47,116 bases of DNA from the IMG/VR virus record IMGVR_UViG_3300010361_000017, positions 1 to 47,116 of that record. One strand, written 5' to 3'. The notes under the pieces are model-generated. The model made no database searches, was not told the origin of the DNA, and was given only the letters and a program-made list of their open reading frames with translations. The position numbers and the translations under genes are program-made. The DNA is from a virus (Duplodnaviria; Caudoviricetes). Below are positions 1-47,116 of the stretch, one piece after another. Each line of letters begins with the position of its first letter. The first letter of the stretch is position 1.

Positions 1-1327
1 AGTCTCCTATCTCAAGTGGTTCCTGATCCCGCCAGTTAGGCCCAAAGCTGGGTTCTGCCGGGATCCAAAATCCGTCCATTTCAGGAATCGGTGCTTGCAT
101 GTAGGCTACAACCGTACGAGCCACTTCGGCACGGTACCGTTTAGGGCTGCTAACCTCGACGCTATCATGTACTCCAAGCATGACGCGAGCCGGATGTGGA
201 GGCGTGCAAGTACACGTAAACCGTTCCAGCACACTTGGCAGAGGAAGTAAAGCATGAGAAATGAGCAGGTCCAAAGCTGTGCTTTGAGGATGGAAGGCAA
301 GTGCCTCGTTACGCTCCGCAAAGCTAAAGCGACGTGTCCTGTGATAGTTCGTGAAGAGGACCCCTGTCCGCGACACCTCGGTCTCGATCCAGTGATGGAA
401 CTGTTTGATCTCCGGTTTATCTTCAAGGTACCTGTCAAGATACTTCCTTGCTTCGTCAAGCGTCCAGCCGTACTTCTCAGCCAGCGTTTTATATCCGAGT
501 CCATTGCTTACTCCGTGTGGGAAGTATTTTGCCTTCAGGAGGTCGGTTGCAATGATGTCTGGTCTACGGTACCGTTTATGGGGTGGACACCCATCCCTGA
601 AGAATGGTCGTTTGAAGAGGTCCTGGTATACGATACCATGAATATAATCACCTTGCTCCTTAATCTCCAATAGGCGCCTGCACTTAGAGTACCATGCCTC
701 CATCCACAACTCCACCTGAGAGTAGTCCACGTGAAGCCAGTCGTGTTCAGGGCAATCAGGAAGAAAGATATCTCGATCATCATCCGTGATGTTATAAAGA
801 CTAGGCTCCGCCTGTACCAACCTTCCGCTTTCTGAACGATGCACAAGGGTTTTGGGATGCGCATATCCGTCGGGTCCTACCCTTTCTAGGATTTGGAGTC
901 TCATCTTGCTGTTTCGCAGGTCGTAGAGGAGCTTTACCACTTCCGGGCAGTCTGGATTGGGTACTTTGTTGGGTACGTCTAGGTAGATGATACTATCCAG
1001 TGCGTCGCTATCGGTGGTCAGACTTTGGTTGATACTACCATCCGCCTTCTTTTTGCGGTTGTACTTTGGCGGAATGCCTAAGGGACCGTAAAGTAACTCG
1101 GCACATTGTTTCGGACTCGCCCAGTCCACGGTAGGGAACAGGCTGTTCCAGAGCTCGGTGTTATGATCAAGCGCCCGCCGGTGAAGCAGTTCCTTCTCCA
1201 TACAAAGTCTTTGATCGGTCCGGACCCCGTGGGTCTGCCACTTGAAGACCTCGTCGAGGAGCCGCATACCGTGATGATTGTACAGGTCCTCAAGGCTGTG
1301 AATCGGCACAATTCCGCTGGTTGTCAT
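1..1327 (-). CDS. polA: DNA polymerase family A, polymerase domain only (runs off the window end; absent from the ORF track)
   Basis: Hand translation from ATG 1327 (SD GAGGT; ATGA overlap with upstream stop) is open to base 1: MTTSGIVPIHSLED...WASPKQCAELLY...ESGRLVQAEPSLYNI...motif A HVDYSQVELW...motif B LLKAKYFPHGVSNG...PQSTALD...motif C MLGVHDSVEV...FGPNW. Confidence 0.93.
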   Translation of the reverse strand, partial: MTTSGIVPIHSLEDLYNHHGMRLLDEVFKWQTHGVRTDQRLCMEKELLHRRALDHNTELWNSLFPTVDWASPKQCAELLYGPLGIPPKYNRKKKADGSINQSLTTDSDALDSIIYLDVPNKVPNPDCPEVVKLLYDLRNSKMRLQILERVGPDGYAHPKTLVHRSESGRLVQAEPSLYNITDDDRDIFLPDCPEHDWLHVDYSQVELWMEAWYSKCRRLLEIKEQGDYIHGIVYQDLFKRPFFRDGCPPHKRYRRPDIIATDLLKAKYFPHGVSNGLGYKTLAEKYGWTLDEARKYLDRYLEDKPEIKQFHHWIETEVSRTGVLFTNYHRTRRFSFAERNEALAFHPQSTALDLLISHALLPLPSVLERFTCTCTPPHPARVMLGVHDSVEVSSPKRYRAEVARTVVAYMQAPIPEMDGFWIPAEPSFGPNWRDQEPLEIGD

Positions 1328-2421
1328 ACCGCACCTCTTATCATCCGAAGCATCGGAAGGTAACAATCATAGGTGTTATAGGTATCCCGGAGGTTATAGA
1401 TAGGTTCGGTCTGGCCTGGAGGGGCCCAGATAACCTGTCCCCTTTTCTTCTGGGGTTTCCATCGACGTCCAGCTGCGAACAAGGAGGCAGCGGTAGCCAG
1501 GTTCTTGGGTCTTGCCTGAGGAAACAGAAAGTACAGTGCGATCATCACATCAAAGATCTTGTTCCGGATAGGGAAGTGGGTTCCCAAGTGCCAGGCATCG
1601 AATTGTTTGTTAAACATCACGCAGGTCAGAGATGGATCACCAAAGAGCGGTGCGGTAAGCGGAAGATATTCCGGATGCACTACCAAGCCTTCATGACTGG
1701 CACAGCTCAGTCCGAGGAGTTTAATCTCCGTTTGAACCGTGGCGACCTGATAAACATCGGTTTCATCATCTACCACCTTATCCGGGGTTTCAATATCTGC
1801 TGCAAAGACCCCTCGTGACTTACACTTCAGGATGTAGTCCACCACCTCCTGTTCGGTTGGGTTCAGATTGAGCCGTTCGGTTGGGTTCCAATCCGCTTGT
1901 GCAAGCCTCCAGGCTTTCCGGAGGTCGCGTTCAAAGTACCACGAAAGGAAGCCTCCGCTACGTGCAACGCCAGCTGGATGGAAGGTGCTGATATACATCA
2001 GGCCGTTATGTCGCTCAACGTACCCCCTCCACTTCCCAATGCCTTGTTGACCCGTTAGCATACTCATTGAGAGGTCACCAAGCGGTTGGACAACCTTAAG
2101 TTGTGGCAGGGCAGCTAGCTCATCCTGTAGGAAATGATTGCAACAAGCGGCCTCCTGTTGAGTCGGATCCCGGTCAAGTGGTGTCCTGCACTTGACAATA
2201 TTTGTTACAAAGCACTCACGTCGCGGAATCCCAAGCGATTGTAAGGCTCGGTTCATATACCTGCCCGCATTCCCTGTAAATGGTGTCCCTTCTCGGATCT
2301 CCTCCGCTGCCGGGTTCATCCCAACGAGTGCAAGGCGGGAGGAGCCAGGTCCCACCCCAAAAATAGGTCCTGGCTCCTTGTACAACGGGCAGGCTTTACA
2401 GCTGTCTGGTTTCTCGTACAT
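1324..2421 (-). CDS. Family-4 uracil-DNA-glycosylase-like domain fused to PolA-type 3'-5' exonuclease
   Basis: CKACPL, GMNPAAEE, PFTGNAG, TNIVKCR, ACC, TFHPA (UDG-4/Fe-S pattern), then ExoI AADIET, ExoII FNKQFD, ExoIII YNLRD; SD AGGAG. Confidence 0.9.
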   Translation of the reverse strand: MYEKPDSCKACPLYKEPGPIFGVGPGSSRLALVGMNPAAEEIREGTPFTGNAGRYMNRALQSLGIPRRECFVTNIVKCRTPLDRDPTQQEAACCNHFLQDELAALPQLKVVQPLGDLSMSMLTGQQGIGKWRGYVERHNGLMYISTFHPAGVARSGGFLSWYFERDLRKAWRLAQADWNPTERLNLNPTEQEVVDYILKCKSRGVFAADIETPDKVVDDETDVYQVATVQTEIKLLGLSCASHEGLVVHPEYLPLTAPLFGDPSLTCVMFNKQFDAWHLGTHFPIRNKIFDVMIALYFLFPQARPKNLATAASLFAAGRRWKPQKKRGQVIWAPPGQTEPIYNLRDTYNTYDCYLPMLRMIRGAV

Positions 2422-2424
2422 GCG

Positions 2425-2970
2425 TCATCTCCTAAGTAGATCAAAGAACCTTGCCTGGAGCGCGGTGTCGGTTTCAAACTTGCCGGTTACAGCATAGGTT
2501 GCAAAATCACCTTCGGTCCTAACACCCCTGATTCTGGCGCACATGTGTCTTCCACGGACGTAACTAGCTGTAGGGCTTCCGCCAGTAAGATCGCTAAGGT
2601 CTTTTGCGATACGGTGAGTGAACTCTTCCTGAAGGAGGGGTCTGCCATTCGCGAAGTTGACAACCCTAGCAAGCTTGCTGAGTCCGAGTACCTTACCTCG
2701 AGTTGGAAGGTAGGCGATACTGCATGTGAGTTTAACAGGCAGAAGGTGATGTGGACATAGGCTCCAGAGACTGTGGTTCCTGAGAAGCACCATGTTGCAG
2801 TAGTACTCATCTGGGAAGACCTCCCAGTTCGGTTCCTCCCGTTGACCGAACATTTCCTGGTAGAACCGAGCCACTCGTTCCGGTGTCTCCAGGAAGTTCC
2901 GGTTCCCGAGGTCTACCCCTAGCCCACGAAGCAAGAGGGTCACCCCCTGTTCGATCAGTAAAGGGTTCAA
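2425..2970 (-). CDS. folE: GTP cyclohydrolase I
   Basis: ETPERVAR, SLCPHHLLP, GLSKLARVV, LQEEFT, HMCARIRGV. Start placed at TTG 2970 where FolE-like sequence begins (ORF track extends to 3138); start uncertain. Confidence 0.93.
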   Translation of the reverse strand: MNPLLIEQGVTLLLRGLGVDLGNRNFLETPERVARFYQEMFGQREEPNWEVFPDEYYCNMVLLRNHSLWSLCPHHLLPVKLTCSIAYLPTRGKVLGLSKLARVVNFANGRPLLQEEFTHRIAKDLSDLTGGSPTASYVRGRHMCARIRGVRTEGDFATYAVTGKFETDTALQARFFDLLRR

Positions 2971-3274
2971 GAGCGTCTGCTTCGATGAGCGAGAAGCATC
3001 CCCAGGCTGCCGCTGCAAGGTGATCCTCCGTCTGACAGCCTTCGTCGCGGGCACGGAGGAGATGATCGATGATGTGATCAAAGACTTGGGTGTTCCATTT
3101 TGGGGATCTGAGTCCCTTTTGCCAGTTCCAGGCTCCATAGTTTACCTCTCCGAGTTGGTATCTTGCAGCGAGTCGCCGCAATGCGTTGCTTGGGATTAGG
3201 TCGTAACGTGGTGCTTGACTGGAGCGTTTGGCACCTGAGGTGTCGATCCAGTCCTGTTGTAGTGCGTTGCTCAT
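2807..3274 (-). CDS. dATP/dGTP diphosphohydrolase-like protein (DUF5664 type)
   Basis: SGAKR..PRYDLIP..ALRRLA..YQLG..NYGAWNWQKG..DHIIDHL..EDHLAAAAWG pattern; SD AGGAG. Confidence 0.85.
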   Translation of the reverse strand: MSNALQQDWIDTSGAKRSSQAPRYDLIPSNALRRLAARYQLGEVNYGAWNWQKGLRSPKWNTQVFDHIIDHLLRARDEGCQTEDHLAAAAWGCFSLIEADALEPFTDRTGGDPLASWARGRPREPELPGDTGTSGSVLPGNVRSTGGTELGGLPR

Positions 3275-3552
3275 ACGTTAAGATCTCCTATGTCTGTGGT
3301 GTAGGTAGTGAGCTGGTCCCTGAGGCGTTCGAACTCCGTTTTTGCAAGTCTGGGGCTCAGGTAGTCCTTTGGGCCGATGACGGTTCCGTCTACCTTAACA
3401 GCGATAACGGACCACGTTTGGACGCCGGCGATGTAGCGTTCCTTTAGGAACACCTTCCAAACCGCCATTTTGGTCACGAAACTATCGAGGACTGGTGCAG
3501 CCAGCACCGCCTTGATATCCCGCTGATGTGCACTCCTTTTCCCGTTCTTCAT
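3271..3552 (-). CDS. hypothetical protein
   Basis: 93 aa ORF coupled by ATGA overlaps to both neighbours. Confidence 0.7.
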   Translation of the reverse strand: MKNGKRSAHQRDIKAVLAAPVLDSFVTKMAVWKVFLKERYIAGVQTWSVIAVKVDGTVIGPKDYLSPRLAKTEFERLRDQLTTYTTDIGDLNV

Positions 3553-4247
3553 CTTAGTCCCAGGAACTTGTGGAGCTGGACGCTTAGTCTCCAGTTAGGA
3601 TGGTCCCTCAGGAGACTGATCGCCCGCTCCAGATTATCCTGATTTACCTCCTTATCGAGATTGATCGGTTGGACCCAAACGTTCGGATGGTTCAGTACCT
3701 CCACCGGAAGATGTTTCGGGAAGTCTTGGTCTACAAGGAGTTTCAGTTCCTGTGCGGATGTGAGGACGCCCAGGAGGTAACCTCCTTTTGGGCTGACCGT
3801 GACCCAAACATGGTTGTAACGCATCAGATCGGTCCAAGGGATGGTCCCGCTGGTCTCAATATGGACCCATTTGTCAAGATCCAGGATCATCCGGATCAGT
3901 GGAAGGATACGGTTCAGTTGTGCAAGTGGCTCACCTCCCGTGAAACAAATATGGTCCTCACGGCACTGGCCGAGGAGTTCCTCGTAGGTCGCGTGTTCAT
4001 GTACGCTAAAATCCGTGTCGCAGTAGAAGGGTCGGCCGTCGTGGGTACGGCAGGTCCAGGCAGGTGCACCACCTGTAAGGAAGGTCCGGCCGTCTGCGCT
4101 TGCAGGTAGGGAGGGTAGTGCTGTGTCCTTAAGGCGACCTACGGTGCAACCTGCAAGCCGGATGAAATACATCGGAGTACCTGTCCAAGTACCCTCCCCC
4201 TGGATACTGTGGAAGGTCTCCGCGAGTGCGAGTTGGTTAGCCTTCAA
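3549..4247 (-). CDS. queE: 7-carboxy-7-deazaguanine synthase (radical SAM)
   Basis: ETFHSIQGEG..G.PMYFIRLAGC, CDTD, FTGGEP, IETSG, TVSPK, WRLSVQLHK; TTG start with GGAG SD. Confidence 0.93.
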   Translation of the reverse strand: MKANQLALAETFHSIQGEGTWTGTPMYFIRLAGCTVGRLKDTALPSLPASADGRTFLTGGAPAWTCRTHDGRPFYCDTDFSVHEHATYEELLGQCREDHICFTGGEPLAQLNRILPLIRMILDLDKWVHIETSGTIPWTDLMRYNHVWVTVSPKGGYLLGVLTSAQELKLLVDQDFPKHLPVEVLNHPNVWVQPINLDKEVNQDNLERAISLLRDHPNWRLSVQLHKFLGLR

Positions 4248-4437
4248 AGTTGTACTCTCCTTTCTTTACCTTTACCCACCTGCCCGCATCGTTAAGTTGC
4301 TGGAAGCTGTCGGAAACATACCGGAGAACGATGATGGTGTCGTCCTCGGAGAGCTGTTTGAGTTGGGTTTCGTTTACATTCAGGATGTATGGAATTCCGA
4401 GATCGTGTTCGCTAACCACAAGTACTTTTTGTTTCAT
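4237..4437 (-). CDS. hypothetical protein
   Basis: ATG 4437 (MKQKVLVV) preceded by AGGAG; fills the gap between queD and queE. Confidence 0.65.
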   Translation of the reverse strand: MKQKVLVVSEHDLGIPYILNVNETQLKQLSEDDTIIVLRYVSDSFQQLNDAGRWVKVKKGEYNFEG

Positions 4438-4837
4438 GGGACTCTCCTGAGGATGGGATGTAGGTGCAATGGACTGTTTCGGTTTCCTGAACGTCAACTG
4501 CGAGGAGGAGAGGGAACTGACCCTTCCACCTGTTATAGAGGTAGTGTGAGAGACATTCCGCTGTGGTGTTGATCAAGGCGCCGTTTTCAAGCTCCTCCCG
4601 GAAGACCTCGTTCAGGTCCTGATGATCGAGCTTCTGATCAATCCAGAAACGAATCGGGTGGAGGTCACCGTAGTCCTGGACCCAGCCAACACCATCTGGT
4701 GCAAGTTCGGTGCTGCTGAGGGTAAAGGCGACGGTGTAGTTATGTCCGTGTTGACGGCCACAGGGATGGTCTTCTGGGACCCTGAGGAGGTGGTGTGCTG
4801 CACTGAATCGGAACAGTTTACTAATTGCCCAGGCCAT
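4412..4837 (-). CDS. queD: 6-carboxy-5,6,7,8-tetrahydropterin synthase
   Basis: FRFSAAHHL, CGRQHGHNY, DYGDL, LDHQDLNE, TTAECL, ETE; start at 4837 or 4858. Confidence 0.93.
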   Translation of the reverse strand: MAWAISKLFRFSAAHHLLRVPEDHPCGRQHGHNYTVAFTLSSTELAPDGVGWVQDYGDLHPIRFWIDQKLDHQDLNEVFREELENGALINTTAECLSHYLYNRWKGQFPLLLAVDVQETETVHCTYIPSSGESHETKSTCG

Positions 4838-5028
4838 GATGTTAGGAAGTCCTCCCATAGTGAGATGAAGTCTGCGGTGCAGCCGATGCAGAGGTGCTCC
4901 CCGATTTCACGGTTGGTGTGGAGCATCGTGCTCGAAACGCCGTCGTGAAACAGCAAGGACAGCGTGGTGTGCAGGTCGTGCGTACAAGGTTCCTTACATC
5001 GCGCACATTTTTCGGTGTAGTGAATCAA
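4612..5028 (-). CDS. putative zinc-binding protein (CxxC...CxxC)
   Basis: TTG 5028 after AAGGGG; CARC...HLCIGC; 3' part overlaps queD in another frame. Confidence 0.5.
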   Translation of the reverse strand: MIHYTEKCARCKEPCTHDLHTTLSLLFHDGVSSTMLHTNREIGEHLCIGCTADFISLWEDFLTSWPGQLVNCSDSVQHTTSSGSQKTIPVAVNTDITTPSPLPSAAPNLHQMVLAGSRTTVTSTRFVSGLIRSSIIRT

Positions 5029-5045
5029 GGAGCACCCCTTTCGGT

Positions 5046-5558
5046 CTAGAGCGGAACGTCTTCGGACGGTCCGGTAAAGGAACCGACTGCGGCTGCAGTT
5101 GACCGGCTTGCAGGCAGAGGTTCGTTGATCGACTTGAAGTTCCACGGTGCAATCCTGCTCCTGAGTTGTTTGCCCTCCGGCGCTTCCTTCAGGCTGGCGG
5201 GCGCGGGAGTCCCACGGTTGGTTGTCGGATCAAACAGTTCCCAATCGACCAGTCCGTAGATCTCACAGTCGTTGATGGTCTCCGGGTCGTGACCTTCGCG
5301 TCCCGGACGGTAGTTACACGCTTTGTAGATTGCCTTGAGTCCTCCCAGGGCGTGCGGTTGAAGACTGCAGTACTGGATGTGCATTTGTCCCACCTCGGGT
5401 TCGTCCTGACACACGAAGTGGTAGACCCAACTCTTTGCTCCTGGGGTATTCTTACTGTCCTGCTCCCCTTGACTCTCAATACGGAAACGGTGCCAACCCC
5501 GGCTTACAGGCACTCCGAAGTCAGCAACCTGTTCCATATCGTGACTATAACGCGGCAT
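5046..5558 (-). CDS. single-stranded DNA-binding protein (DUF669-like)
   Basis: PVSRGWHRFRI N-terminal pattern, low-complexity linker and acidic-hydrophobic tip (SEDVPL); near an AAA_24 ATPase; SD AGGAGG. Confidence 0.65.
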   Translation of the reverse strand: MPRYSHDMEQVADFGVPVSRGWHRFRIESQGEQDSKNTPGAKSWVYHFVCQDEPEVGQMHIQYCSLQPHALGGLKAIYKACNYRPGREGHDPETINDCEIYGLVDWELFDPTTNRGTPAPASLKEAPEGKQLRSRIAPWNFKSINEPLPASRSTAAAVGSFTGPSEDVPL

Positions 5559-5574
5559 TGTGTGTTCCTCCTGT

Positions 5575-5766
5575 TTAAGTATGGCTTGCAGTGATAGTCT
5601 GCAAGGCAGATTGAAGCACGTTCTTTAGGCGTACCTCAAAATTCGGGAAGGCGACATCGTACTGTTGACGGTCCTGTACGATCAGTCGCGGGCCTTCGTA
5701 GACGAGTAGCTTAACATACGGCCAGTCGTCACGGATGGTGAACTGATACTGAAGTAGGGTTGGCAA
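5575..5766 (-). CDS. hypothetical protein
   Basis: TTG 5766 after AAGGAG; 63 aa. Confidence 0.55.
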   Translation of the reverse strand: MPTLLQYQFTIRDDWPYVKLLVYEGPRLIVQDRQQYDVAFPNFEVRLKNVLQSALQTITASHT

Positions 5767-6676
5767 CTTGAAGCTCCTTTCGTCGAGTTGTGATCTCCTG
5801 CCAGAGATACGGCCAGAAGGGTGGGCAGTATCCCGCACCGTAGTTCCAGGGCCTCCCTTGTCCGCCACCCCAGGTGGTTGGGGCTAGGGATTCTAGTGTA
5901 CCGGTTCGGTCCTTTACCTCCCAGTAAGCGCCGCCACCACCTACGGTTTCGCGGATGGCGACGAGAGTTGGGGCACCGTTCAGGACACGGCTCCTAAGGA
6001 TCACATCCGGCAGGCGCCCTGCACGGCGTGCCCATTTACCGGTTAGGTCAGGTAGTCCCTTTATGCTGGTCGGTTCTGCAGCTTGAAGCTTGCCGCCTGG
6101 TCCGGCTACGTAGGCACCCTTGGTGTACTCCCTGTCAAGTTCCTCGTGGGCAGTGACCAGGATCTGACAGCCAAAAGCGAGGCTGTACCACTGAAGGACC
6201 CGCATCAGCTTTCCGAAGCGTTCGCCTGCCGGGTTCCAATCACTCAGTTCCATCAGTTCGTGTCCGGAAACAGCTTTTGCTTTACTTGCACATGCACGTT
6301 CCAGGCCGCTGGCACTGTCGATAATCAGGCTCCTCCAGCGTGGATCAAAACTGAGGATACTCTTCTCTGCTGCCTCAAAGGTTTCAGGGTCCTCAGGATC
6401 GTAGTGTTGAACCTTACATCGGGGGCCTAGCTTGAGGATCTCCTGCTGGATGCTTAGGGTACCGAGGTCGAAGTCCTCGATCCTAAGGGGTGATGGGAAG
6501 GTACCTGCAAAGCGAGTTTTCCAGGTACCGTACTCACCGAACACAAGCCAGAATAGGCCGTCCCCTCCGAGGCCTACTCGGCGGAGGGGACGATGTTCCT
6601 CGTGTCCTTGGTTTGTTTCGAGATGTTTCCCACAGGCACCACACCACCAGTGGATGTTATCGGGCAGGGTCCTCAT
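5729..6676 (-). CDS. AAA_24 / Sak4-like P-loop ATPase (recombination)
   Basis: Walker A GEYGTWKT, DFDLG, Walker B LIIDSAS, VTAHE; N-terminal CxxC..H motif. Confidence 0.8.
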   Translation of the reverse strand: MRTLPDNIHWWCGACGKHLETNQGHEEHRPLRRVGLGGDGLFWLVFGEYGTWKTRFAGTFPSPLRIEDFDLGTLSIQQEILKLGPRCKVQHYDPEDPETFEAAEKSILSFDPRWRSLIIDSASGLERACASKAKAVSGHELMELSDWNPAGERFGKLMRVLQWYSLAFGCQILVTAHEELDREYTKGAYVAGPGGKLQAAEPTSIKGLPDLTGKWARRAGRLPDVILRSRVLNGAPTLVAIRETVGGGGAYWEVKDRTGTLESLAPTTWGGGQGRPWNYGAGYCPPFWPYLWQEITTRRKELQVANPTSVSVHHP

Positions 6677-7398
6677 GCTTCCTCCAGGAGAGGATCGTTC
6701 AGGTTTGCGTCCGCGAAGCCTTTTGCGCGGACGGTGCAGGCGCCGCAGGTTTGACAGGGCCTGCCGTCCTCGTCAGGGTTGTAACATGACCATGTGAGAT
6801 GCCAGGGTACTTCGAGGCTTTCACCGAGCAGGACAATTTCCTTTTTGCTTAGGTGAAGGAGAGGTGCCCAGAGCCGAAAGGTTGCTTTTTCGTGTGGCCG
6901 GCCAAGTGCGAACTGAAGCGCTGTTTGAAGGGCATCCACGAACTCTGGGGTGCAGTCGGGGTAACCACTCCAGTCCACTGCGTTCACCCCGGTGCCTACG
7001 GTGTTGATTCCGAGGGTGTAGGCAAGTCCGGCAAGTGCGCTCAGGAGGATTGCATTACGTGCAGGGAGCCAAGATGGGGCTACGCCAGGATCGGGTAGGA
7101 CAGGCGCCTCAGCATCGCTGTACCTGCCTGTAGGGTTCAGGAGTGCGCTTTGCGTGAAGTTCTTTAGGGGAAGTTCACGTACAGACCAGAAACGGATCTT
7201 GGTCAGCTTGGCAAGCGCCTGAGCACCGCTGAGTTCCTTGTGATGTGACTGTCCGTAGTCGATTGAACACGCGAAGATCTCCTCCGGTGGATGATTACTG
7301 AGTGCGTAGTAGAGGACTGTTGCGCTGTCCATCCCTCCGCTTAGGCTGATTAGGATCGGACCTTCAGGCGCCCGAGGGCACCGTACATCATTTGACAT
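6673..7398 (-). CDS. queC: 7-cyano-7-deazaguanine synthase
   Basis: SGGMDS PP-loop, YGQSH, PARNAILL, YPDCTPEF, TWSCY, CQTCGAC. Confidence 0.95.
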   Translation of the reverse strand: MSNDVRCPRAPEGPILISLSGGMDSATVLYYALSNHPPEEIFACSIDYGQSHHKELSGAQALAKLTKIRFWSVRELPLKNFTQSALLNPTGRYSDAEAPVLPDPGVAPSWLPARNAILLSALAGLAYTLGINTVGTGVNAVDWSGYPDCTPEFVDALQTALQFALGRPHEKATFRLWAPLLHLSKKEIVLLGESLEVPWHLTWSCYNPDEDGRPCQTCGACTVRAKGFADANLNDPLLEEA

Positions 7399-8479
7399 TG
7401 TGTAGTTCTCCTTTGTGGGTGGTTAGATTTTGCTTCAGTCCTTCTTCGATGACGTAGTCCTTAATCTCATCTGGCGTTTCGCTCCACCGAAGTCCTTGGC
7501 GCCAAAGTAGGTCGAAGTATCCGATGTCGTGGTAACGGAGCGGGTCTAGTGCAAAGTTACTGAATAGGCTCGGGTCGTCCCACTCCAGACAAAGACCTTG
7601 GTACCAACAGGTGCGGTTGTAGTCGGTGCAGGCACGTGGACTGACACGAAACGATAGGTTTGGGTCCCGACCGCTACTCAGCTTGGCTTCGATCTCCGTA
7701 CCGATATCAACCGCCCAGTGGAGCATCCTTTGATAGTCCTGATGGACACGTGGATAGGGTTCGCTTTCGATGGTGACGTTGTCTGCGCTTTGGTTCCTCC
7801 ACGGCATGTTCAGCTTGTTGATGATAAAGCCACGTGGGGTAATCCCGGTGCTTTCCTGAACTCCCCAGCAGTATAGGGTACCTTGCATGTCGAGAAGGTA
7901 CTGCTTGAAAAAGATGTCCTGTTTCAATCCGCTGAACTTGTGGTCTAGGAGCCAGATCGAACCGTGTGTCATCGAGATCACTGCATCGGTCACTCCGGCT
8001 AGGTAGTAGGGGACCTGGCAGCTGTAACCCTGAGGCCAGGCACCGGGACAGACGTGGTAGGCCGGACCTCCGCCAAGGCTACGGAGGAGCTGTTCGTGAA
8101 GGAACCAACAGTGATGTGTGGTACCCGGGATGGGTACAAGGAAGTTCACTTCCGTTCGGAGAACGGTGTAGTCCAATCGGCTGTACCGCTCAGCATACTG
8201 TCGGACACCTTCACGTGCTGAGATTATGGCACGTTCCCACTCCGGGACTTCTTCTGCGAGGAGGTCTGCGGCGTCCATCTCCTCACGGATTTCGTGTTCG
8301 GCGAGTTCCACGGCTTCGTGAACATTACCTGTTTTGTGAAAGTGTGCAATTCCACGGTGACCACCCGATCCCCGTTCGAGGGTCACCATCGGAGGCGGGC
8401 GAAGCCGACGGATGTGTCGGTTTAGATATTTGTGCTGGCACTGTTCGTACAGGTCCAGCGTGCTGAAGTTCATGATCAT
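7388..8479 (-). CDS. PD-(D/E)XK exonuclease (RecB/Cas4-like, Cys-containing)
   Basis: FSTL..YEQC, RGSGGH, TEVNF, GVTDAVI, LLDHKF, QGTLY, C-terminal C..C..C. Confidence 0.8.
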   Translation of the reverse strand: MIMNFSTLDLYEQCQHKYLNRHIRRLRPPPMVTLERGSGGHRGIAHFHKTGNVHEAVELAEHEIREEMDAADLLAEEVPEWERAIISAREGVRQYAERYSRLDYTVLRTEVNFLVPIPGTTHHCWFLHEQLLRSLGGGPAYHVCPGAWPQGYSCQVPYYLAGVTDAVISMTHGSIWLLDHKFSGLKQDIFFKQYLLDMQGTLYCWGVQESTGITPRGFIINKLNMPWRNQSADNVTIESEPYPRVHQDYQRMLHWAVDIGTEIEAKLSSGRDPNLSFRVSPRACTDYNRTCWYQGLCLEWDDPSLFSNFALDPLRYHDIGYFDLLWRQGLRWSETPDEIKDYVIEEGLKQNLTTHKGELHNVK

Positions 8480-10403: not shown

Positions 10404-11191
10404 ATCTTAAGGTCTCCTTCTTCAGGTGATGTATCGCCTTCGAATCCCCACCCGTCCTCAGCCGGGTCGTAGATCCGTAAGGGCTCGTAAACATAGATCG
10501 GTACCCTCCACTGCTTCAGGAAGTCAACATACCTGAAGTTAACACTGTGGAGGTAGAAGTTCCGTGGGTAACCATACTGTGCACGGACTGCCAGCTCACC
10601 TTGGACAAACCGTCCCCAGAGATTGACCTGACCGTACACGGCACCCTTCACGTGGGCGTACTGCGCCTTAGGTTCGTACTCTGCATAGATCCCACTACTG
10701 TTGTCTTGTTCAGGGGTCCTGTCCGCCTCTAACGGTTGAAGCGGCGTCCAGATCGCTCGTTGCTGCACTGCGCTAACGAGTCGGAGGTAATCTGGCGCAC
10801 TTGGACCTACCACGTCTTCCGCGACAATCCATGTACGCCACCCTACCAGGTACTCTGTCTCCGGTGTGGTGCAGGGTGTCACAGGCACCGGTACCGGTGC
10901 TACCGAAAAGGGCCTAACCGGCGGCGGATTATGTCTCCACCTCATGTTGTACATCTGACGGTAGAGCACCGCTCGGTTATACCCCAGTCGTGGTGCCTCC
11001 GACGGGAAGAGTCGTGCAAGTCCTGCAAGATACTTTTCCGCTGTGTTATACAACGGCTTACTTTGGAGGGGTGGATCCCCACGTTTCCAGACCTCCAACG
11101 GTGGGAGATCAGCCCGTCCGGCAATCTCAAGCTGAATCCCACTTTTCGGGTGCCGTTGACTTACCAATCGTACCGTAAACATCTGCATCAT
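10400..11191 (-). CDS. hypothetical protein with a GWRxW...GIYA...LWG...RA domain
   Basis: 263 aa; ATGA-coupled on both sides; motif pattern recurs in phage/bacterial hypotheticals (from memory). Confidence 0.75.
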   Translation of the reverse strand: MMQMFTVRLVSQRHPKSGIQLEIAGRADLPPLEVWKRGDPPLQSKPLYNTAEKYLAGLARLFPSEAPRLGYNRAVLYRQMYNMRWRHNPPPVRPFSVAPVPVPVTPCTTPETEYLVGWRTWIVAEDVVGPSAPDYLRLVSAVQQRAIWTPLQPLEADRTPEQDNSSGIYAEYEPKAQYAHVKGAVYGQVNLWGRFVQGELAVRAQYGYPRNFYLHSVNFRYVDFLKQWRVPIYVYEPLRIYDPAEDGWGFEGDTSPEEGDLKI

Positions 11192-11499
11192 TCACCCTCC
11201 CCCTTTCTGGCAAGTTCCACGAGCGCCTCGGCAATCTCCTTTTCGGTACAGCGTGCCTGTGTACGTCCATACCGTTCCCTGAGGTGCTGATTAAGGCGTT
11301 TGGTCAACTCGAGCCTCTTCTTCCAGCTCTTCCGGTGATAATCCTGCTGATATCCAGCCCCATAGAGCCACCGATTAACGATCTCGGTGACCTCCTCTGG
11401 TGTGAATACCCTGAGTACCGCTGGTAGGTCTGGGAACGCAGGATCCCCTGCAGGATCCTTCGGTATCACCCGGCCTTGCAATCGTATCTCAACCTTCAT
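11188..11499 (-). CDS. hypothetical protein
   Basis: 103 aa; GGGAGG SD. Confidence 0.75.
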   Translation of the reverse strand: MKVEIRLQGRVIPKDPAGDPAFPDLPAVLRVFTPEEVTEIVNRWLYGAGYQQDYHRKSWKKRLELTKRLNQHLRERYGRTQARCTEKEIAEALVELARKGEGE

Positions 11500-11529
11500 T
11501 GCGTTGCCTCCCTTTATATGTGATGTATC

Positions 11530-11712
11530 CTACCGTCCGATCGGTCTGATCTTAATCCTGACATCCGTTGCATGACCCGTTTCGGCGGTATGTGCCACCG
11601 CCTCGAGGACCTCCACTCCGCGCCAGCCACACCCACATGCCGCAGAGATCTGGACCCCGGGTGTACTGTCAATGGTGCGTACCTGCTCCCTAATCGTTAC
11701 CACTGTTGCCAT
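11530..11712 (-). CDS. small putative zinc-binding protein (CxC...HxxxxxH)
   Basis: ATG 11712 after GAGGAGG; ACGCGW...AHTAETGH. Confidence 0.65.
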   Translation of the reverse strand: MATVVTIREQVRTIDSTPGVQISAACGCGWRGVEVLEAVAHTAETGHATDVRIKIRPIGR

Positions 11713-11842
11713 CGTCCGTTTCCTCCTCAATGATTTCGTGGCATTCGCATGCGCACGTCCGTTCCGTTCCCTGGCAATCCGGGCACCTCCCTTCCGCACA
11801 TTCTGTCTGGATGATAGGCACCTCACTGTTCCAGTTCATCAT
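11690..11842 (-). CDS. 50-aa Cys-rich mini-protein (below ORF-track cutoff)
   Basis: MMNWNSEVPIIQTECAEGRCPDCQGTERTCACECHEIIEEETDDGNSGND; GAGG SD. Confidence 0.6.
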   Translation of the reverse strand: MMNWNSEVPIIQTECAEGRCPDCQGTERTCACECHEIIEEETDDGNSGND

Positions 11843-12116
11843 GGCACCTCTCCCAGTCCTGATCTATATCGAACTCCCACTCCGGGTGAACGGTACCAAT
11901 CGCTTGGTACACTACCCTCAGGACCTTCTCTACCTCCTCGCAGTACTCCTCAGCACAATAAACCGCACACCAGACCCTCTGTTGTGGTCGCGTCGGTATT
12001 CTTGTCTCCACCTCAAATCTCCCACTGTGTTGATTTCTCAGTAGGTCATTGAGCTCGTCTGCTGTCAACTGTTTTGGAGGCCCATTTGGCGGTGTGACAA
12101 AGTACATCCCTTTCAT
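11823..12116 (-). CDS. hypothetical protein
   Basis: 97 aa; GAGGTG SD. Confidence 0.6.
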   Translation of the reverse strand: MKGMYFVTPPNGPPKQLTADELNDLLRNQHSGRFEVETRIPTRPQQRVWCAVYCAEEYCEEVEKVLRVVYQAIGTVHPEWEFDIDQDWERCHDELEQ

Positions 12117-16216: not shown

Positions 16217-17735
16217 CTTTTACTTTTTTGTGAAGGCCGTCCTGGGATACACCGATCTGACTGTTGAGTTCCATAAAGGGGTTTGTGATTTTCTGCAGTT
16301 TAGTAAAACTCACCGTCAGGTCCTCCTGCTTCAACGCGGTGCCTTCAAAACAACCATTGTCAAGAGTTATGCTATCTGGAGGCACGCAAAGGAAAAGATT
16401 GAAAACGGACGGGATATCAGCATGGTCATTGGCCGGGAAACGGATGACGGTGCCAAACAGACACTGAGAGAGATCAAAGGGCATTATAGGACTAATCAGA
16501 TACTTCAGTGGATTTTCCCTGAGGTCATCCCGCCCCAGGGTAAAGTGACCAGTCCTGACAGCCAGGAGGGTAAATGGGACGAGCATGAGATTATCCTGCC
16601 AAGGCTCCGTCCCCGTGCTGAACCCAGCGTAAGCTGTGTGGGGGTAGGCGTGGCGGTGACGGGCGAGCATTATGAGATGCAGATCAAGGATGACTTGATA
16701 GGTTTCAGCGCCAGTCGGTCAGAGACCGAGATGAACCGAGCGATAGACTGGCATCGGTATAGTGAAGGTCTGTTTGTGAAACCAGAACTTGGGAGTTCGG
16801 AGGATATCGTACTGGGAACCTACTGGACCGATAGCGATTATTATCATTGGATTGAGGAGAACGAGGCGGAATACGATTTCTACATCCGATCTGCAGTTGA
16901 GGATGGCCGACCGACTTTCCCCGAGCGTTTTTCGATGGAGACACTTGAACGGATCCGGAGGAAGCAAGGTGACTACATCTTCAGCTGCCAGTATCTGAAC
17001 GATCCGATACCGAGGGAAGGTGGAGACTTCAAACCTGACTGGATTGGGTCCTATGAGGTCGTGGACGACCGTGCCGTTAAGGTACCTAAGGAACCCTATC
17101 CGATTAGTGTACAGTATCTGGATAGGGTGGGGTACTTCGACCCAAGCCATAAAGGACTGATCGGTGGGGCTGAACACGCAGCCGTCGTGTTGGGGATGGA
17201 TAGCAGCTGGAACCGTTACCTCCTTGACTTTCGGGCGGTCCTAGGTGGGATCCGGAACGGACTGCATCAGGTACAGGAACTGAACGACCGGTGGATCTGC
17301 AGGTGGTTTTATGAGGCTGTGGGTGCCCAGACCTGGCTTGCGGATTTTCTGGTTGAGGTTAGGCAGTCACCCCGCTGTACCTTCAGGCTCAAGGAAGGAG
17401 ATCAGCCGTGTGGTAAAATGCACAGGAATTTATGGATGCAACCGAACCTGAAGCAAAGCACGAAGATGCATAAGGATGAAAGGATTCGACAGAATCTGCA
17501 ACCGGTCGTGGAGGAAAGGCGGATGTTCCTGAGGGCTGGTCAGGAGAAAGCAAGGAATCAGCTTCTGAGGTTCCCTACCGGAAAGCTCAAGGATGTTATC
17601 GATGCGATGGCGGGCGGGGTCACCTACCTGATCAGGCCGAGGGATGTACAGGTCCCAGAGGCGAGCGATCAGGTCCCGGAAGCACTTTTGCAGGAGATGA
17701 CCTCACGAACACAAACGGAGTTCTTCTGTGGGTAA
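16131..17735 (+). CDS. terL: terminase large subunit
   Basis: Walker A QRGAFKTT, Walker B IKDDL, GTYW, FSCQYLNDP, nuclease YFDPS...KDVIDAMA. Confidence 0.92.
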   Translation: MASNDILTLAASGQATELRTEVRQRALSSFYFFVKAVLGYTDLTVEFHKGVCDFLQFSKTHRQVLLLQRGAFKTTIVKSYAIWRHAKEKIENGRDISMVIGRETDDGAKQTLREIKGHYRTNQILQWIFPEVIPPQGKVTSPDSQEGKWDEHEIILPRLRPRAEPSVSCVGVGVAVTGEHYEMQIKDDLIGFSASRSETEMNRAIDWHRYSEGLFVKPELGSSEDIVLGTYWTDSDYYHWIEENEAEYDFYIRSAVEDGRPTFPERFSMETLERIRRKQGDYIFSCQYLNDPIPREGGDFKPDWIGSYEVVDDRAVKVPKEPYPISVQYLDRVGYFDPSHKGLIGGAEHAAVVLGMDSSWNRYLLDFRAVLGGIRNGLHQVQELNDRWICRWFYEAVGAQTWLADFLVEVRQSPRCTFRLKEGDQPCGKMHRNLWMQPNLKQSTKMHKDERIRQNLQPVVEERRMFLRAGQEKARNQLLRFPTGKLKDVIDAMAGGVTYLIRPRDVQVPEASDQVPEALLQEMTSRTQTEFFCG

Positions 17736-33207: not shown

Positions 33208-33547
33208 CCTAGAACCCGTTATCGAGGACGTACCGAAGTGGCTTCAGCGTTTCCTTGTAACCTGGCGACTTGTCCGTCGAGTCGTCAACGGTGGGCTTGA
33301 ATTCGGTAGCCCAACAATCGGAACCGTCAACATGAAGGGCGCTTGGGCAACTGGCACGACCCCAAGCGGTGGTGCTGAATTCGCAGTAACTCACAACCTT
33401 GGGTATATCCCCACCGGATTTCTCGTTTGGTCCCTTGGAGGTTCTGCAACCATATACAGTAGCACAGGAGGTACACCTTGGAACAAATCACAGATATTTC
33501 TGAAGTGCGCGGGCGGGAGCGTAACCTACACCCTGTTCATCTCCTAA
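33194..33547 (+). CDS. putative tail protein
   Basis: TTG 33194 after GGAG; VTHNLGYIPTGF motif. Confidence 0.6.
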   Translation: MKIPNLEPVIEDVPKWLQRFLVTWRLVRRVVNGGLEFGSPTIGTVNMKGAWATGTTPSGGAEFAVTHNLGYIPTGFLVWSLGGSATIYSSTGGTPWNKSQIFLKCAGGSVTYTLFIS

Positions 33548-33558
33548 AGGAGGTGGAT

Positions 33559-42226: not shown

Positions 42227-42619
42227 TTGAAGATCCTAATCGAAACAATCCCACATCGTGAACAGCGGTACGAAACCATCGGCGACTGGCAATGGGAAGG
42301 ACCTGATGCACTTAGGATCCGGGTCAGTGACCTAGGTGACTGGCGAATGAACCTCCTGGTTGCACGTCACGAACTCGACGAGGCGATGCTTTGCAAGCTC
42401 GAGGGAGTAACCCAAGAGGCCGTGGACCAGTATGATTTCACTCACCCTGAAGCCGGCGGCGACTGTTTCTCAGACGATCTTGACGCCCCTTACAGCGGGG
42501 CACACAACGCAGCACTTGCAGCAGAATACACACTGTCCAGGCTTCTCGGCGTGGACTGGAAGGAGTACGACCGGTGCGTTTCCTCTTTATTAGCTCCTAT
42601 GGCGACGGCGCAGGAGTAG
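42227..42619 (+). CDS. small zincin-like metalloprotein (HExxE)
   Basis: QRYETIGDW, ARHELDE, APYSGAH; TTG start after AAGGAG. Confidence 0.65.
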   Translation: MKILIETIPHREQRYETIGDWQWEGPDALRIRVSDLGDWRMNLLVARHELDEAMLCKLEGVTQEAVDQYDFTHPEAGGDCFSDDLDAPYSGAHNAALAAEYTLSRLLGVDWKEYDRCVSSLLAPMATAQE

Positions 42620-44156: not shown

Positions 44157-44400
44157 GATCCTCCTTTATGGTGAATGCCGTCACATCAGTGACCCCTTCT
44201 GGGTTGACAAAGTCCTGAACCGAAACCTCCGTTAGTACAAAGGTAACCCGACCTGTCCGGCAATTCTTGAGCTCGTGAACGGTCTCCTCCTGGGTGTACA
44301 GCTCCTCGGTTCCAGGGTACCTTCGGAGGCTGATCTGCCTACATATCCGCACACACCTATGTGGTGCGCCTTGACTCTCTACAATGTCACCTAGGTTCAA
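44146..44400 (-). CDS. hypothetical protein
   Basis: TTG 44400 after GGAGGTGG. Confidence 0.55.
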   Translation of the reverse strand: MNLGDIVESQGAPHRCVRICRQISLRRYPGTEELYTQEETVHELKNCRTGRVTFVLTEVSVQDFVNPEGVTDVTAFTIKEDHGT

Positions 44401-45121
44401 GTCCCACCTCCAGTAGGTTAGCAAGGATTTGTGTGTCCGCACCCGGGTCAGGTGGGGGTGCGGAGAAGTCTACAGGGTGTCCGATCTCCTTCCACTTCTC
44501 CCGACTTGCAGGGCCCAGTCCGAGTCCGTGCCAGCCCCGCCAGACAGGCGCCGAACTATCGATACTGTTCACTCCTGCGTGACGAAGCCCCCAGAATTCA
44601 CCCAGGTCACCTGCCGACATTCCAAGCGCGTGCAGGTAGATGTCAGGGAACATTAAGCGAATTCTGTATGCTCGAAGTGTCCGCTCAAGCGGGTGGGTTT
44701 TCATCAAGGATCGGGGCAGTCCAAAAGCACGAAAACCGCCGTCCTTAAAGTCAAGGATGTCCTGCCAGTCCATGTTTGGTTGAATGACCGCCATCCAAAT
44801 TGTATCCGTGATGCTACGCCACCGCTCACGGAACACAAACGCACTGCTGATGTTGGTCTCCCTGTCCCCTCCTATCACATCGGGACAGATCACGTATTGT
44901 GGCCGCCAGGTTTTCATCGCTTCGCTCATCAGTGACTGGTCAAACGGGAAACCTTCATATGCACCGTTGTCAAGAATGAGGGTATCACCCGCAGCCCTCC
45001 TGTCCTCATAGAACTTCCGATAGACCAGATCGTTGAAGTTCTGTACCAGTGGGAATTGATGCCTGCTTAAGGTCGCATATCTTTCAAGTCCCGCCGTTGG
45101 ACTAATCACACAGAATTTCAT
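44387..45121 (-). CDS. divergent tRNA-guanine-transglycosylase-fold (DpdA-like) protein
   Basis: LILDNGAYE, CPDVIG, MAVIQ, LHALG, SIDSSAP match the TGT/DpdA motif order; ATG 45121, ATGA overlap. Confidence 0.72.
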   Translation of the reverse strand: MKFCVISPTAGLERYATLSRHQFPLVQNFNDLVYRKFYEDRRAAGDTLILDNGAYEGFPFDQSLMSEAMKTWRPQYVICPDVIGGDRETNISSAFVFRERWRSITDTIWMAVIQPNMDWQDILDFKDGGFRAFGLPRSLMKTHPLERTLRAYRIRLMFPDIYLHALGMSAGDLGEFWGLRHAGVNSIDSSAPVWRGWHGLGLGPASREKWKEIGHPVDFSAPPPDPGADTQILANLLEVGLEPR

Positions 45122-45462
45122 TTTTCGTACATCTCCTTTCCGAGTTTGTGGTACCACAGTCTGAAGTGATAAACCGTTGCACTATTAAGGTTTGCCTGGA
45201 CCGCTGCATCACGGCTGGGTCCGTAAACGGCCACACGTGGATCCATCATGAGCAGCTTCCTTTGGGCTTCTGCACGGAGTCGGGCACCTCCCCTTGGGCG
45301 CCGGTCAATATCCGAGAGGACAAGCCGACGCCGGATGGTTGCGGCACCAAACCCCAGGAAGTCGTGCAGTTTCGAGATACTGTAGCGTGGGTAAAGTTTG
45401 GTCCACATATCTTTTTCATCGGCGAAGTTTAACGAGCGTGCGATACTATCCCAGTCTTCCAT
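45118..45462 (-). CDS. putative HTH DNA-binding protein
   Basis: YSISKLHDFLGFGAATIRRRL helix-turn-helix-like segment. Confidence 0.55.
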   Translation of the reverse strand: MEDWDSIARSLNFADEKDMWTKLYPRYSISKLHDFLGFGAATIRRRLVLSDIDRRPRGGARLRAEAQRKLLMMDPRVAVYGPSRDAAVQANLNSATVYHFRLWYHKLGKEMYEK

Positions 45463-45464
45463 GT

Positions 45465-45728
45465 TTAGGCTCCAAGTCCAAACGCTTTCCTTGCCTCCTT
45501 CCAGTTGAGTTTGGTTCCGTGAACACACGTGAACATCTTCTGCGCTTGTTCAACGTTTGCAGGTGAACGATCCTCAGGTACAAGCGCCTGCAGGGCTTCG
45601 GTGTGTGTCAGCGGCCTGCCAGAAGCAACCGCATACTTTAAGGGACAGGTAATAAGTGTTTCACCTGGCTTCCTTCTTGCACCTAGTACCTCAAGTACCT
45701 CACGTTCCTCCCTACTGATCTCAGTCAT
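45465..45728 (-). CDS. hypothetical protein
   Basis: ATG 45728 after GGAGG; 87 aa. Confidence 0.65.
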   Translation of the reverse strand: MTEISREEREVLEVLGARRKPGETLITCPLKYAVASGRPLTHTEALQALVPEDRSPANVEQAQKMFTCVHGTKLNWKEARKAFGLGA

Positions 45729-45730
45729 CC

Positions 45731-47113
45731 TTACCTCCCTGTTGTAAGATAACAATGTACCGTTGCATCGTGTTGTTCCCTAATTCTACCTCCCTCCTTC
45801 AGACTATTAAGCACGTTCCTTAAGGTGGCTGCATTCATCTTGTACTCTACGGCACGAACCAGGACACTATGATCGATTATGCCTCCGTGCTTTCCAACCA
45901 TCTTCAGGACGAACTCCGCTTGGACTCCGGCTTCAGCCTGGAACATACGTCGCACGGTGTCCGGCAGGAACCCTTCGGTCCACTGCACCAGATCAATTGC
46001 TCCGCGGGTACAGCGTTCACACACAACGCCGTTACGACATCCCGCCATATGGATGAGCATCGCCAGTTTGATACATCGATCAGGTCGCCGCTGCGCGTAG
46101 TTCGTAAGAACTTCTTCAGGTGCTCTCTTAAAGACCTCGCGCTGACTGTGATACCACTCGTCCCAGTACTGTCTCGCCGACGGATGGAACGACATCTGTC
46201 CTGAAAACTCTTTGAAGTTTGCAAGTCTAACGAGGAGCTTGGAACGAACCTCCGGATCAGGAACCGTGGGGATAGATTCCTCTCTGGCAGTATCTTCTTG
46301 TACGACCAGCATGAGTCGGTTGATGAAGCCACCGCCAAATGTATCTTCAGGAGTTGCCCGCACAAACCAGTCAAGTGTGCTCCCGCCAAGCATTGACAGG
46401 GCAACGTCACGGAGACCGGCCTTCCCCCTGCTAATAGTGCTCGAATCCCAGATATCCGGATTGTCCAGGAGCCGTGTGAGCAAGGGAACAAGGCCTTCAT
46501 TGTATCGTTGTTTGTTAAGGAACACTGCCAGTTCTGGGACATAGATTACCCCCGAGGCGCTGTCGCGCATTGCATCGATAAGTGCTTCTGGTGTCATCTT
46601 TTCGCTGTATATCTTAACGATACCCAGCTCCTGTAGCATTGTGATGCCGAGGTTCGTTCCAGTCGTCTTACGACAAATACCACTAGGAGCAATAAGGACC
46701 ACACTAAGATTAGGAAAAAGTTTGTAGACACCCATATCGAACCAAACACGACGCCCAACCACACTACCGACGCAACACAGAGACGTAAAGAGGTGAAACG
46801 CCAGGGGTGTTTCGCTATGGATGGTGTACTCACAATAGTCGTAGAAGAAACCGCGGGGGATAAGCCTCCACAGTTCGTGTTCGAGTTCGCTTGGGTCCCG
46901 GCCGTTTTGTACCGGTCGGATTTCCTCCTTGATCTTAGGTGAGACATGCTTGAGAAGTTCCTCCTGTGAGATGTTAAAGGTCCTGCAGACTGCATCGCGT
47001 AAAACGTCCTTTTGGGTTGCCTTTAGCTCTGTTGGAAAGTCCCTAAGCCATTGTATACTTCGGGTGAAGACCACGCTGTCGGTGTTTCGTTCCTCAGCAG
47101 GGATGGTCTCCAA
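45731..47113 (-). CDS. DUF3987-like P-loop NTPase (putative replicative helicase)
   Basis: SETPLAFH, FPNLSVVLIAPSGICRKTT, TPEAL, PELAVFL, GGFINR, C-terminal winged-helix-like region. Confidence 0.8.
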   Translation of the reverse strand: METIPAEERNTDSVVFTRSIQWLRDFPTELKATQKDVLRDAVCRTFNISQEELLKHVSPKIKEEIRPVQNGRDPSELEHELWRLIPRGFFYDYCEYTIHSETPLAFHLFTSLCCVGSVVGRRVWFDMGVYKLFPNLSVVLIAPSGICRKTTGTNLGITMLQELGIVKIYSEKMTPEALIDAMRDSASGVIYVPELAVFLNKQRYNEGLVPLLTRLLDNPDIWDSSTISRGKAGLRDVALSMLGGSTLDWFVRATPEDTFGGGFINRLMLVVQEDTAREESIPTVPDPEVRSKLLVRLANFKEFSGQMSFHPSARQYWDEWYHSQREVFKRAPEEVLTNYAQRRPDRCIKLAMLIHMAGCRNGVVCERCTRGAIDLVQWTEGFLPDTVRRMFQAEAGVQAEFVLKMVGKHGGIIDHSVLVRAVEYKMNAATLRNVLNSLKEGGRIREQHDATVHCYLTTGR

Positions 47114-47116
47114 CAG

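Follow-up and report, generated by a model that had tools for sequence, protein, structure and literature searches.

A DpdA3-type 7-deazaguanine gene cluster among the replication genes of a podovirus-like phage and its possible route to guanine replacement

The DNA considered here, IMG/VR record IMGVR_UViG_3300010361_000017 (positions 1-47116; this whole stretch of 47,116 nucleotides is called the window), spans nearly the entire genome of a podovirus-like phage of ~47 kb, with terminase, SU10-like portal and adaptor, capsid, and tail fibre genes. The sequence was found in soil metagenome runs, and no RNA dataset was listed for it. A scan of 60 open reading frames (ORFs) revealed one minus-strand run, comprised of queC, queD, queE, a PF18909 hydrolase gene, folE, a split gene for a uracil-DNA glycosylase (UDG)-exonuclease/PolA polymerase, a primase gene, and the 7-deazaguanine transglycosylase gene dpdA3. 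A preliminary description of this DNA had pointed out that que genes are interleaved with replication genes, and every gene it named was found in place on the minus strand. It had also supposed that the operon continues across the joined ends of the record, which is confirmed by contig L001 (100%/99.98% identical and probably from the same sample) and by the order polA-primase-dpdA3, which is the same in all 25 related loci (L002-L026). L001 bridges positions 1 and 47116 via 311 extra bases holding a single ORF of ~87 aa without Pfam match. The primase/helicase-like DUF3987 protein (45731..47116, -; PF13148, phrog_14296) starts just past the window end and is a complete ORF in L001.

The gene at 44387..45121 (-) encodes a 244-aa protein of the tRNA-guanine transglycosylase (TGT) fold, for which 180 relatives of similar length were collected. 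It has no Pfam or NCBIfam match. A profile of the protein and its relatives matched the phiST protein CGPG_00065, with which the DpdA3 subfamily was founded, with an HHalign probability of 98.7% (E 2.2e-16, 215 columns), as against 2.9% (E 0.016) between the family profile and DpdA1 of phage 9g. Likewise, phrog_20335, the phiST family, was matched by 92 of 120 family members, and phrog_887, on the DpdA1 side, weakly by 8 of the 120. In a 34-row tree DpdA1 and DpdA3 are split at 100/100, and the window protein falls on the DpdA3 side, in a subgroup separate from the DpdA3 phages whose DNA has been measured. D51, N52, D81, R147, H164, G167, and D188 are invariant across 13 diverse DpdA3 proteins, and the conserved Asp residues are presumably equivalent to D102, D156, and D280 of TGT. 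Placement among the DpdA and TGT types, which had been proposed as a check, thus leads to DpdA3; judged by homology and predicted fold, the protein is a member of this subfamily, which is tied to complete G replacement. Because the subfamily is a published one, the system belongs to a kind already described.

The TGT fold suggested earlier is also borne out by structure comparison. The AlphaFold2 model (predicted local distance difference test score 96.5) forms a TGT barrel, with 7ui4 and TGT as the top Foldseek matches. In VIA, the DNA insertase 7ui4 was matched with Z 15.0 (rmsd 4.2, 224 aligned) and Cap10-CdnD (9ntn), also at Z 15.0, tied for top. A viral fold search gave TM 0.80 for the phiST protein and ranked a protein of nt-1, the phage of a DpdA2, 22nd (TM 0.50). 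The tie with Cap10-CdnD raises the alternative that a protein or a tRNA receives the deazaguanine instead of DNA, which is the activity of Cap10 in type IV cyclic oligonucleotide-based antiphage signaling systems. This appears very improbable in view of the clear homology to DpdA3 of phages measured with full dG replacement, the location of the gene in a replication operon, and the length of 244 aa, well short of the ~370 aa of tRNA TGTs.

The preliminary description had called the gene stand-alone and divergent. Stand-alone here means no more than unfused, and the gene encodes a DpdA3 of normal length. The best 150 of 4373 DpdA3 representatives are nearly all 230-320 aa or fragments. No fused or longer DpdA3 (512-2000 aa) was found among 8000 scored candidates, which is weak evidence, and the four longest representatives checked had no NCBIfam match. 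Searches of cultured phages by tblastn with the window DpdA3, of PDB sequences with its profile, and of relatives with the StAshley protein as seed gave zero matches each. DUF6610, the type of HVTV-1 DpdA4, did not match the window protein, and a broad DpdA3 alignment showed no usable pattern. At residues 22-27, in the first strand region, the window DpdA3 and a 95% identical relative (P0001) carry Gln-Phe-Pro where His-Leu is nearly invariant elsewhere.

Four genes of the run correspond to the pathway for preQ0 (7-cyano-7-deazaguanine). GTP cyclohydrolase I is encoded by folE (2425-3138, -; PF01227, 138 bits, from residue 62), whose true start is probably near 2970, since relatives have ~183 aa. 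queD (4412-4858, -; PF01242) encodes 6-carboxytetrahydropterin (CPH4) synthase with the CxxxHGH motif intact in the translation, and queC (6673-7398, -; PF06508; TIGR00364, 158 bits, cut-off 150.3) a preQ0 synthase with no Gat fusion. The 7-carboxy-7-deazaguanine (CDG) synthase gene, queE (3549-4247, -; phrog_2076, E 1e-26), is matched by NCBIfam QueE models below cut-off; the best of them, queE_Cx14CxxC, reaches 98 bits, and the window spacing is longer. Its radical-SAM cluster motif reads C-x(31)-C-x(9)-C. The pattern C-x(24-44)-C-x9-C occurs in 20 of the 21 members with a parsed motif in the clade of related loci, compared with the canonical CxxxCxxC in 72 of 77 QueEs from DpdA1 loci. Between queE and the gene before folE, 20 clade loci hold a member of a ~120-aa family, to which the 93-aa gene of the window (3271..3552, -) is a weak match (hidden Markov model E 0.002, a single-sequence test); an Atlas search with the conserved ~120-aa gene gave a top score of 0.80 and no named family.

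According to the passages of Cui 2023 (PMC10516641) dealing with this pathway, FolE, QueD, QueE, and QueC yield preQ0. QueF, ArcS, Gat-QueC, PurZ, and kinases had no match among the 60 window ORFs and the ~87-aa gap ORF, in line with the earlier remark that queF, gat-queC, and a kinase were not recognised. DpdL was not seen in the window ORFs either, an absence less firmly supported than those of QueF, Gat, and ArcS because DpdL lacks a Pfam model. Since QueC, of the preQ0-synthase type, is present and QueF and DpdL were not seen, preQ0 or its amide (ADG) stands as the simplest predicted product, as had been supposed, and the replacement base is likely one of these two.

With regard to the nucleotide pool, a 155-aa protein encoded at 2807-3274 (-) belongs to the dATP/dGTP diphosphohydrolase family PF18909 (DUF5664; 54.5 bits, cut-off 27). 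Its ORF overlaps that of folE by 332 nt, as noticed before, but the Pfam domains merely abut at ~2955-2965, so that the overlap is only a tail. The slot preceding folE was compared in the 24 clade loci, out of 27, in which folE is present: it is occupied by DUF3310 in 11, PF18909 in 7, DUF1599 in 2, and DUF6378 in 1 (the last two types being weak assignments), with 3 unassigned. A named small nucleotide-handling domain thus fills it in 21 of the 24, and never were two of these four types found together at one locus. DUF3310, which we take to be the family of T7 gp1.7, is called a nucleotide kinase by PHROGs after that protein, itself described in a secondary passage as a dTMP/dGMP kinase. Because the slot holds the hydrolase in just 7 loci, this enzyme is one of several interchangeable occupants and no fixed component.

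In the parts of PMC12884076 concerned with Z-genome synthesis, the DUF5664 protein of phage Wayne is described as converting dATP, dUTP, and dGTP to the monophosphates with a tenfold higher kcat on dATP, DmtZ as transferring deoxyribose-phosphate from dAMP onto the new base, and host enzymes as completing dZTP synthesis; DUF5664 homologues are also reported from phages with canonical DNA. DmtZ and DUF5664 provide a precedent for the chemistry, and the dATP preference is a warning as to the specificity of the window hydrolase. The hydrolase put forward earlier as an argument for a nucleotide-level mechanism is therefore present, but the argument is weakened by the variable slot, the occurrence in canonical-DNA phages, and the preference of the homologue.

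The polymerase genes adjoin folE, as had been stated: a protein with a family-4 UDG-like domain and a 3'-5' exonuclease (1324-2421, -; PF03167, PF01612) is followed by a 442-aa PolA polymerase half with a remodelled motif B / O helix (1..1327, ORF 2-1366, -; PF00476). Its start is most likely at 1327, where start and stop overlap with the exonuclease gene next to a ribosome-binding-like stretch. Most relatives have a single UDG-exo-PolA ORF of 800-870 aa, which in the window is split after the exonuclease domain. An assembly error was rejected in view of the start/stop overlap, and because the gene is likewise split in L159 and in a strain of ~94% identity whose junction differs by net -6 nt. 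The catalytic Asp, Lys, and Gln and the three exonuclease motifs are retained. In the window, as in most relatives, UDG motif A does not follow the family-4 pattern, for which reason the UDG domain may be inactive.

The motif changes were read in 23 aligned clade proteins against the Bacillus fragment, with residue numbers that we take to follow E. coli. The R754 position is Leu, Ile, or Met and the N761 position Pro in 23/23; F762 is replaced by Leu in 22 and by His in the window, H734 by Tyr in 21 (His in the window), and R712 by an aromatic residue in 20, while Asn at the Y766 position is peculiar to the window. An insertion preceding helix O bears an invariant Lys, and an Arg lies 12 residues N-terminal of the catalytic Lys in 12 of the 23. 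Loss of the gamma-phosphate Arg is a candidate reading of these changes, and the Arg at -12 or the insertion Lys may substitute for it. In the DpoZ paper, as far as its motif B passages go, an insertion conceals a structurally kept motif B Arg, and Leu762 also occurs without a base change.

The altered polymerase of the preliminary description is thus borne out at the level of sequence. A polymerase-seeded scan (80 of 89 loci kept, 74 new ids) gave 23 polymerases with this motif B, five of them on newly found contigs, and all 23 lie with folE and/or dpdA3. The co-occurrence of this polymerase clade with que genes, also proposed as a check, was accordingly seen, but as the 23 are one clade it shows linkage and not cause. 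The remodelling appears from these alignments to be special to the clade and not required by DpdA3 systems generally; PolB or Pol III alpha serves in other DpdA3 phages. Tandem full UDG-exo-PolA paralogues stand directly after dpdA3 in L039 (10743-15481), L040, L043, and L044; the first copy is altered in motif B and in the His region, and the second is canonical.

To compare gene context, genes were counted within 6 kb at loci whose upstream part spans 4.5 kb or more (54 of 58 DpdA3 and 71 of 87 DpdA1 loci); those 4.5-6 kb away were screened only with the analysis's own profiles, and seed bias was limited by a Pfam scan of 202 sequences representing the gene clusters that neighbour DpdA1. Kinase-type genes occur at 25/54 DpdA3 loci (13 DUF3310, 12 P-loop) and at 0/71 DpdA1 loci, hydrolase genes at 17/54 versus 4/71, and either kind at 36/54 versus 4/71. 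These counts are not independent, because the DpdA1 set is mostly one lineage and the P-loop kinase possibly has a single origin. In L144 (5082-5996) and L145-L147 (3489-4457), a gene beside dpdA3 or close to it encodes a fusion of DpdL, a candidate CDG decarboxylase, with an AAA_18 kinase. A C-terminal L[FW] tail, presumably a sliding-clamp-type motif, ends 77 of 83 DpdA1 proteins but 3 of 54 DpdA3 proteins, and is absent from that of the window, where no sliding-clamp gene was recognised in family scans. At the DpdA1 loci (L064-L143), dpdA1 stands beside a clamp gene and folE is often fused to a phosphoribosyltransferase (PRTase) gene. A separate virus group (L027, L030, L037, L038, L042) carries a dpdA3-polB-dUTPase_2 (dimeric dUTPase) run, and its available loci contain few que genes, if any.

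Eight cultured DpdA3 genomes were reached by chained tblastn from phiST, five of the assignments being made in this analysis. A kinase-like gene adjoins dpdA3 in six (phiST, MA9V-3, BSP7, Youna2, CP220, and Ahp1), is third downstream of it in immuto_2-6A, and lies beside folE in StAshley, hence in 8/8 overall. The adjoining kinases are of P-loop or deoxynucleoside monophosphate kinase type, the calls for BSP7 and Youna2 being weak (a P-loop, a weak deoxynucleoside kinase match, and the label of a sister record). In phiST, CP220, and immuto_2-6A, whose 100% G replacement was verified by LC-MS, a kinase and a MazG-like, PRA-PH, or HD gene lie at most three genes from dpdA3; in CP220 the HD protein carries a fused P-loop domain and may serve another role. 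In immuto_2-6A (L053), the PurN-like formyltransferase DpdN is encoded at 10879-11933, between dpdA3 and the kinase gene. PurN works on a ribonucleotide, and DpdN would thus fit formylation at the nucleotide level.

From the gene set, the DpdA3 identity, the intact catalytic residues, and the polymerase changes observed in the window, we consider that this is quite probably a DpdA3-type 7-deazaguanine system that replaces most or all G. As to when the base is exchanged, the chance that this happens on dGMP before replication seems about even. In such a scheme, FolE, QueD, QueE, and QueC would build preQ0; the PF18909 enzyme would convert dGTP to dGMP, both depleting dGTP and feeding DpdA3; and DpdA3 would swap guanine for preQ0 on free dGMP. 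In this phage, host guanylate and diphosphate kinases may then complete the triphosphate, in the way that dZMP is processed by host enzymes, whereas other DpdA3 phages would supply their own kinase. As the weakest step, the reshaped O helix might tune the polymerase to the modified pool. In a bolder form of this proposal, which we regard as doubtful, DpdA3 would be a dGMP:7-deazaguanine transglycosylase and no other enzyme of the TGT fold would have been known to work on a free nucleotide before it; the clade polymerase, its pocket devoid of the Arg and His that normally bind phosphate, would have been reshaped in favour of the 7-deaza-dG nucleotide, and the pair would be a G counterpart of PurZ/DpoZ with a dedicated polymerase.

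The nucleotide-level mechanism put forward in the preliminary description thus gains from the family-wide context (kinases, hydrolases, the DpdL-kinase fusion, and the missing clamp-type tail), but it contradicts the published proposal, and both arguments from the phage's own genome, the hydrolase and the polymerase, are weakened. The passages of Cui 2023 (PMC10516641) on DpdA3 phages report complete G replacement in phiST (dDG), CP220 (dADG), and immuto_2-6A (fdPreQ1), propose that every modification of this sort takes place after replication, and describe no activity of DpdA3 in an E. coli plasmid test in which DpdA1/2 members were active. Under that published model, DpdA3 would swap G for preQ0 on new DNA with high efficiency, perhaps coupled to the replisome, while hydrolase and kinases would be ordinary pool tuning and the polymerase changes would aid the copying of modified template or represent lineage drift. 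We hold this to be a serious contender, though with a probability clearly short of even. It agrees with the DNA activity of all biochemically tested DpdA proteins, as described in that source, whose authors propose the same for DpdA3, and with the DNA insertase 7ui4 among the best PDB folds; dpdA3 also frequently sits directly before a polymerase gene, and this genome has no recognised kinase and a variable slot gene. It is less easily reconciled with the repeated kinase adjacency and the DpdL-kinase fusion, which have no clear use if the free base alone is consumed, with the lack of a clamp-type tail and recognised clamp gene, with the need to flip every G for 100% replacement on duplex DNA, and with the inactivity in the E. 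coli test.

Several further observations weigh against exchange on free nucleotides. No P-loop kinase occurs in the clade, 18/54 DpdA3 loci have neither kinase nor hydrolase within 6 kb, the DpdA1 loci used as control belong for the most part to a single 9g-like lineage, and a nucleoside deoxyribosyltransferase (NDT)-family enzyme is encoded at seven DpdA1 loci. On the DpdA3 tree, as few as 3 changes account for the P-loop kinase label, consistent with one origin. In the slot, the hydrolase gives way to the kinase-annotated DUF3310 at more loci than it occupies, and as the two enzymes work in opposite directions, the slot may be a mere hotspot for small pool genes; a characterised PF18909 homologue prefers dATP (PMC12884076, in the relevant part). 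DpdA3-linked PolAs outside the clade have a canonical motif B in 11/11 cases, and in L168 (8633-11140), whose 21 kb examined contain no que genes, a UDG-exo-PolA carries His762 and lacks the motif B Arg. A dNMP-kinase-like gene lies near the L168 polymerase. Net charge is little different (-3.0 for DpdA3 versus -2.5 for DpdA1 per 100 aa) and was dropped as a proxy for DNA binding. Finally, GATC, GGCC, CTAG, CGCG, CATG, and CCGG show a mild deficit (z -2.6 to -4.4), an avoidance that full protection would not require.

This mild avoidance of G-containing palindromes would also agree with partial modification in the clade, which we consider together with other nucleotide-level paths, namely salvage by a host or phage PRTase followed by reduction, or exchange on dGTP or GMP. 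PRTase genes near folE in L009, L034, L144, L145, immuto_2-6A, and StAshley and ribonucleotide reductase genes near the cluster in StAshley, BSP7, and MA9V-3 would suit such paths, but family scans of the window found neither enzyme, and its dpdA3 retains its catalytic residues and position; this group of alternatives is improbable.

Other genes of the run and window complete the picture. A conserved 136-aa gene (45118..45528, -) is translationally coupled upstream of dpdA3, with homologues occupying that position at the majority of clade loci. Within the que cluster lies a replication/recombination block (5046..6676, -) comprised of a conserved 170-aa gene, a 97-aa gene, and a gene for a Sak4-like AAA protein (5729-6676, -); the 170-aa product is a probable single-stranded DNA-binding protein, judging from its position and acidic tail. 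A PD-(D/E)XK protein, identified by family match, is encoded at 7388-8479 (-). The late operon closes, behind the gene of a 1939-aa virion-type protein, with a conserved 130-aa gene (42227-42619, +) and a gene for a PurD-like ATP-grasp ligase (42574-43863, +); the latter was not adopted as a pathway member, being on the opposite strand, absent from several clade loci, and part of a widespread phage family. A GroES-like gene without GroEL (43833-44156, -), an acetyltransferase-like gene amid virion genes (33478-34029, +), and a 572-aa gene following the terminase with no family match (17728-19446, +) were also observed.

The significance of the locus lies in the route to 100% G replacement in DpdA3 phages, for which Cui 2023 proposed the post-replicative model but could not reconstitute it; open-access full-text searches found no paper proposing a nucleotide-level DpdA3 route. 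Such a route, if true, would be a new activity of the TGT fold, would explain the failed E. coli tests, and would offer enzymatic access to 7-deaza-dGTP analogues and fully substituted DNA. It is testable in vitro, as every part (four preQ0 enzymes, the 244-aa DpdA3, the 155-aa hydrolase, and the polymerase halves) is found in one compact run. The PolA changes of the clade fall at positions described as non-mutable in Taq and are of interest whatever DpdA3 does.

Compared with known systems, the window shares the DpdA3 catalytic residues, FolE, QueD, and QueE, an all-alpha dNTP hydrolase near folE, and a nearby phage polymerase with phiST, CP220, and immuto_2-6A (Cui 2023, PMC10516641). Unlike these, it has QueC and no P-loop kinase, and DpdL, QueF, and DpdN were not seen; its DpdA3, of another subgroup, is ~20% identical to those of the measured phages, from which it also differs in its podovirus-like ~47-kb genome, remodelled split UDG-exo/PolA, and atypical QueE motif. 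The DpdA1 preQ0 systems of CAjan, 9g, and Rosebush, as presented in parts of Hutinet 2019 (PMC6884629), have the same four preQ0 genes by a polymerase and likely the same base, but there DpdA1 modifies 0.1-30% of G after replication, and the window enzyme (HHalign 2.9% to DpdA1) has neither clamp-type tail nor clamp gene. The Z-genome systems (PurZ/PurZ0, DUF5664/MazZ/DatZ, DmtZ, and DpoZ), in the portions of PMC12884076 and PMC8599892 describing them, likewise place a PF18909 hydrolase beside a base-making pathway, and the clade PolAs resemble theirs in Leu762 (in most relatives) and in an insertion near helix O. The window differs in lacking PurZ, in its base, and in a transglycosylase of TGT fold rather than NDT; its polymerase reaches 34 bits with the DpoZ model NF038380 (cut-off 500), and any selectivity of it is putative. 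UDG-PolA fusions and split PolAs have already been described (PMC10201439, in the sections on SPO1 and N4-like phages), with the same family-4 UDG-like domain ahead of exonuclease and polymerase domains; in the window, by contrast, the split follows the exonuclease, motif B is remodelled, and no 5-hydroxymethyluracil genes were seen. What the window adds to these systems is a clade without P-loop kinase, with a swappable nucleotide-handling slot, an odd QueE motif, and a rebuilt polymerase pocket.

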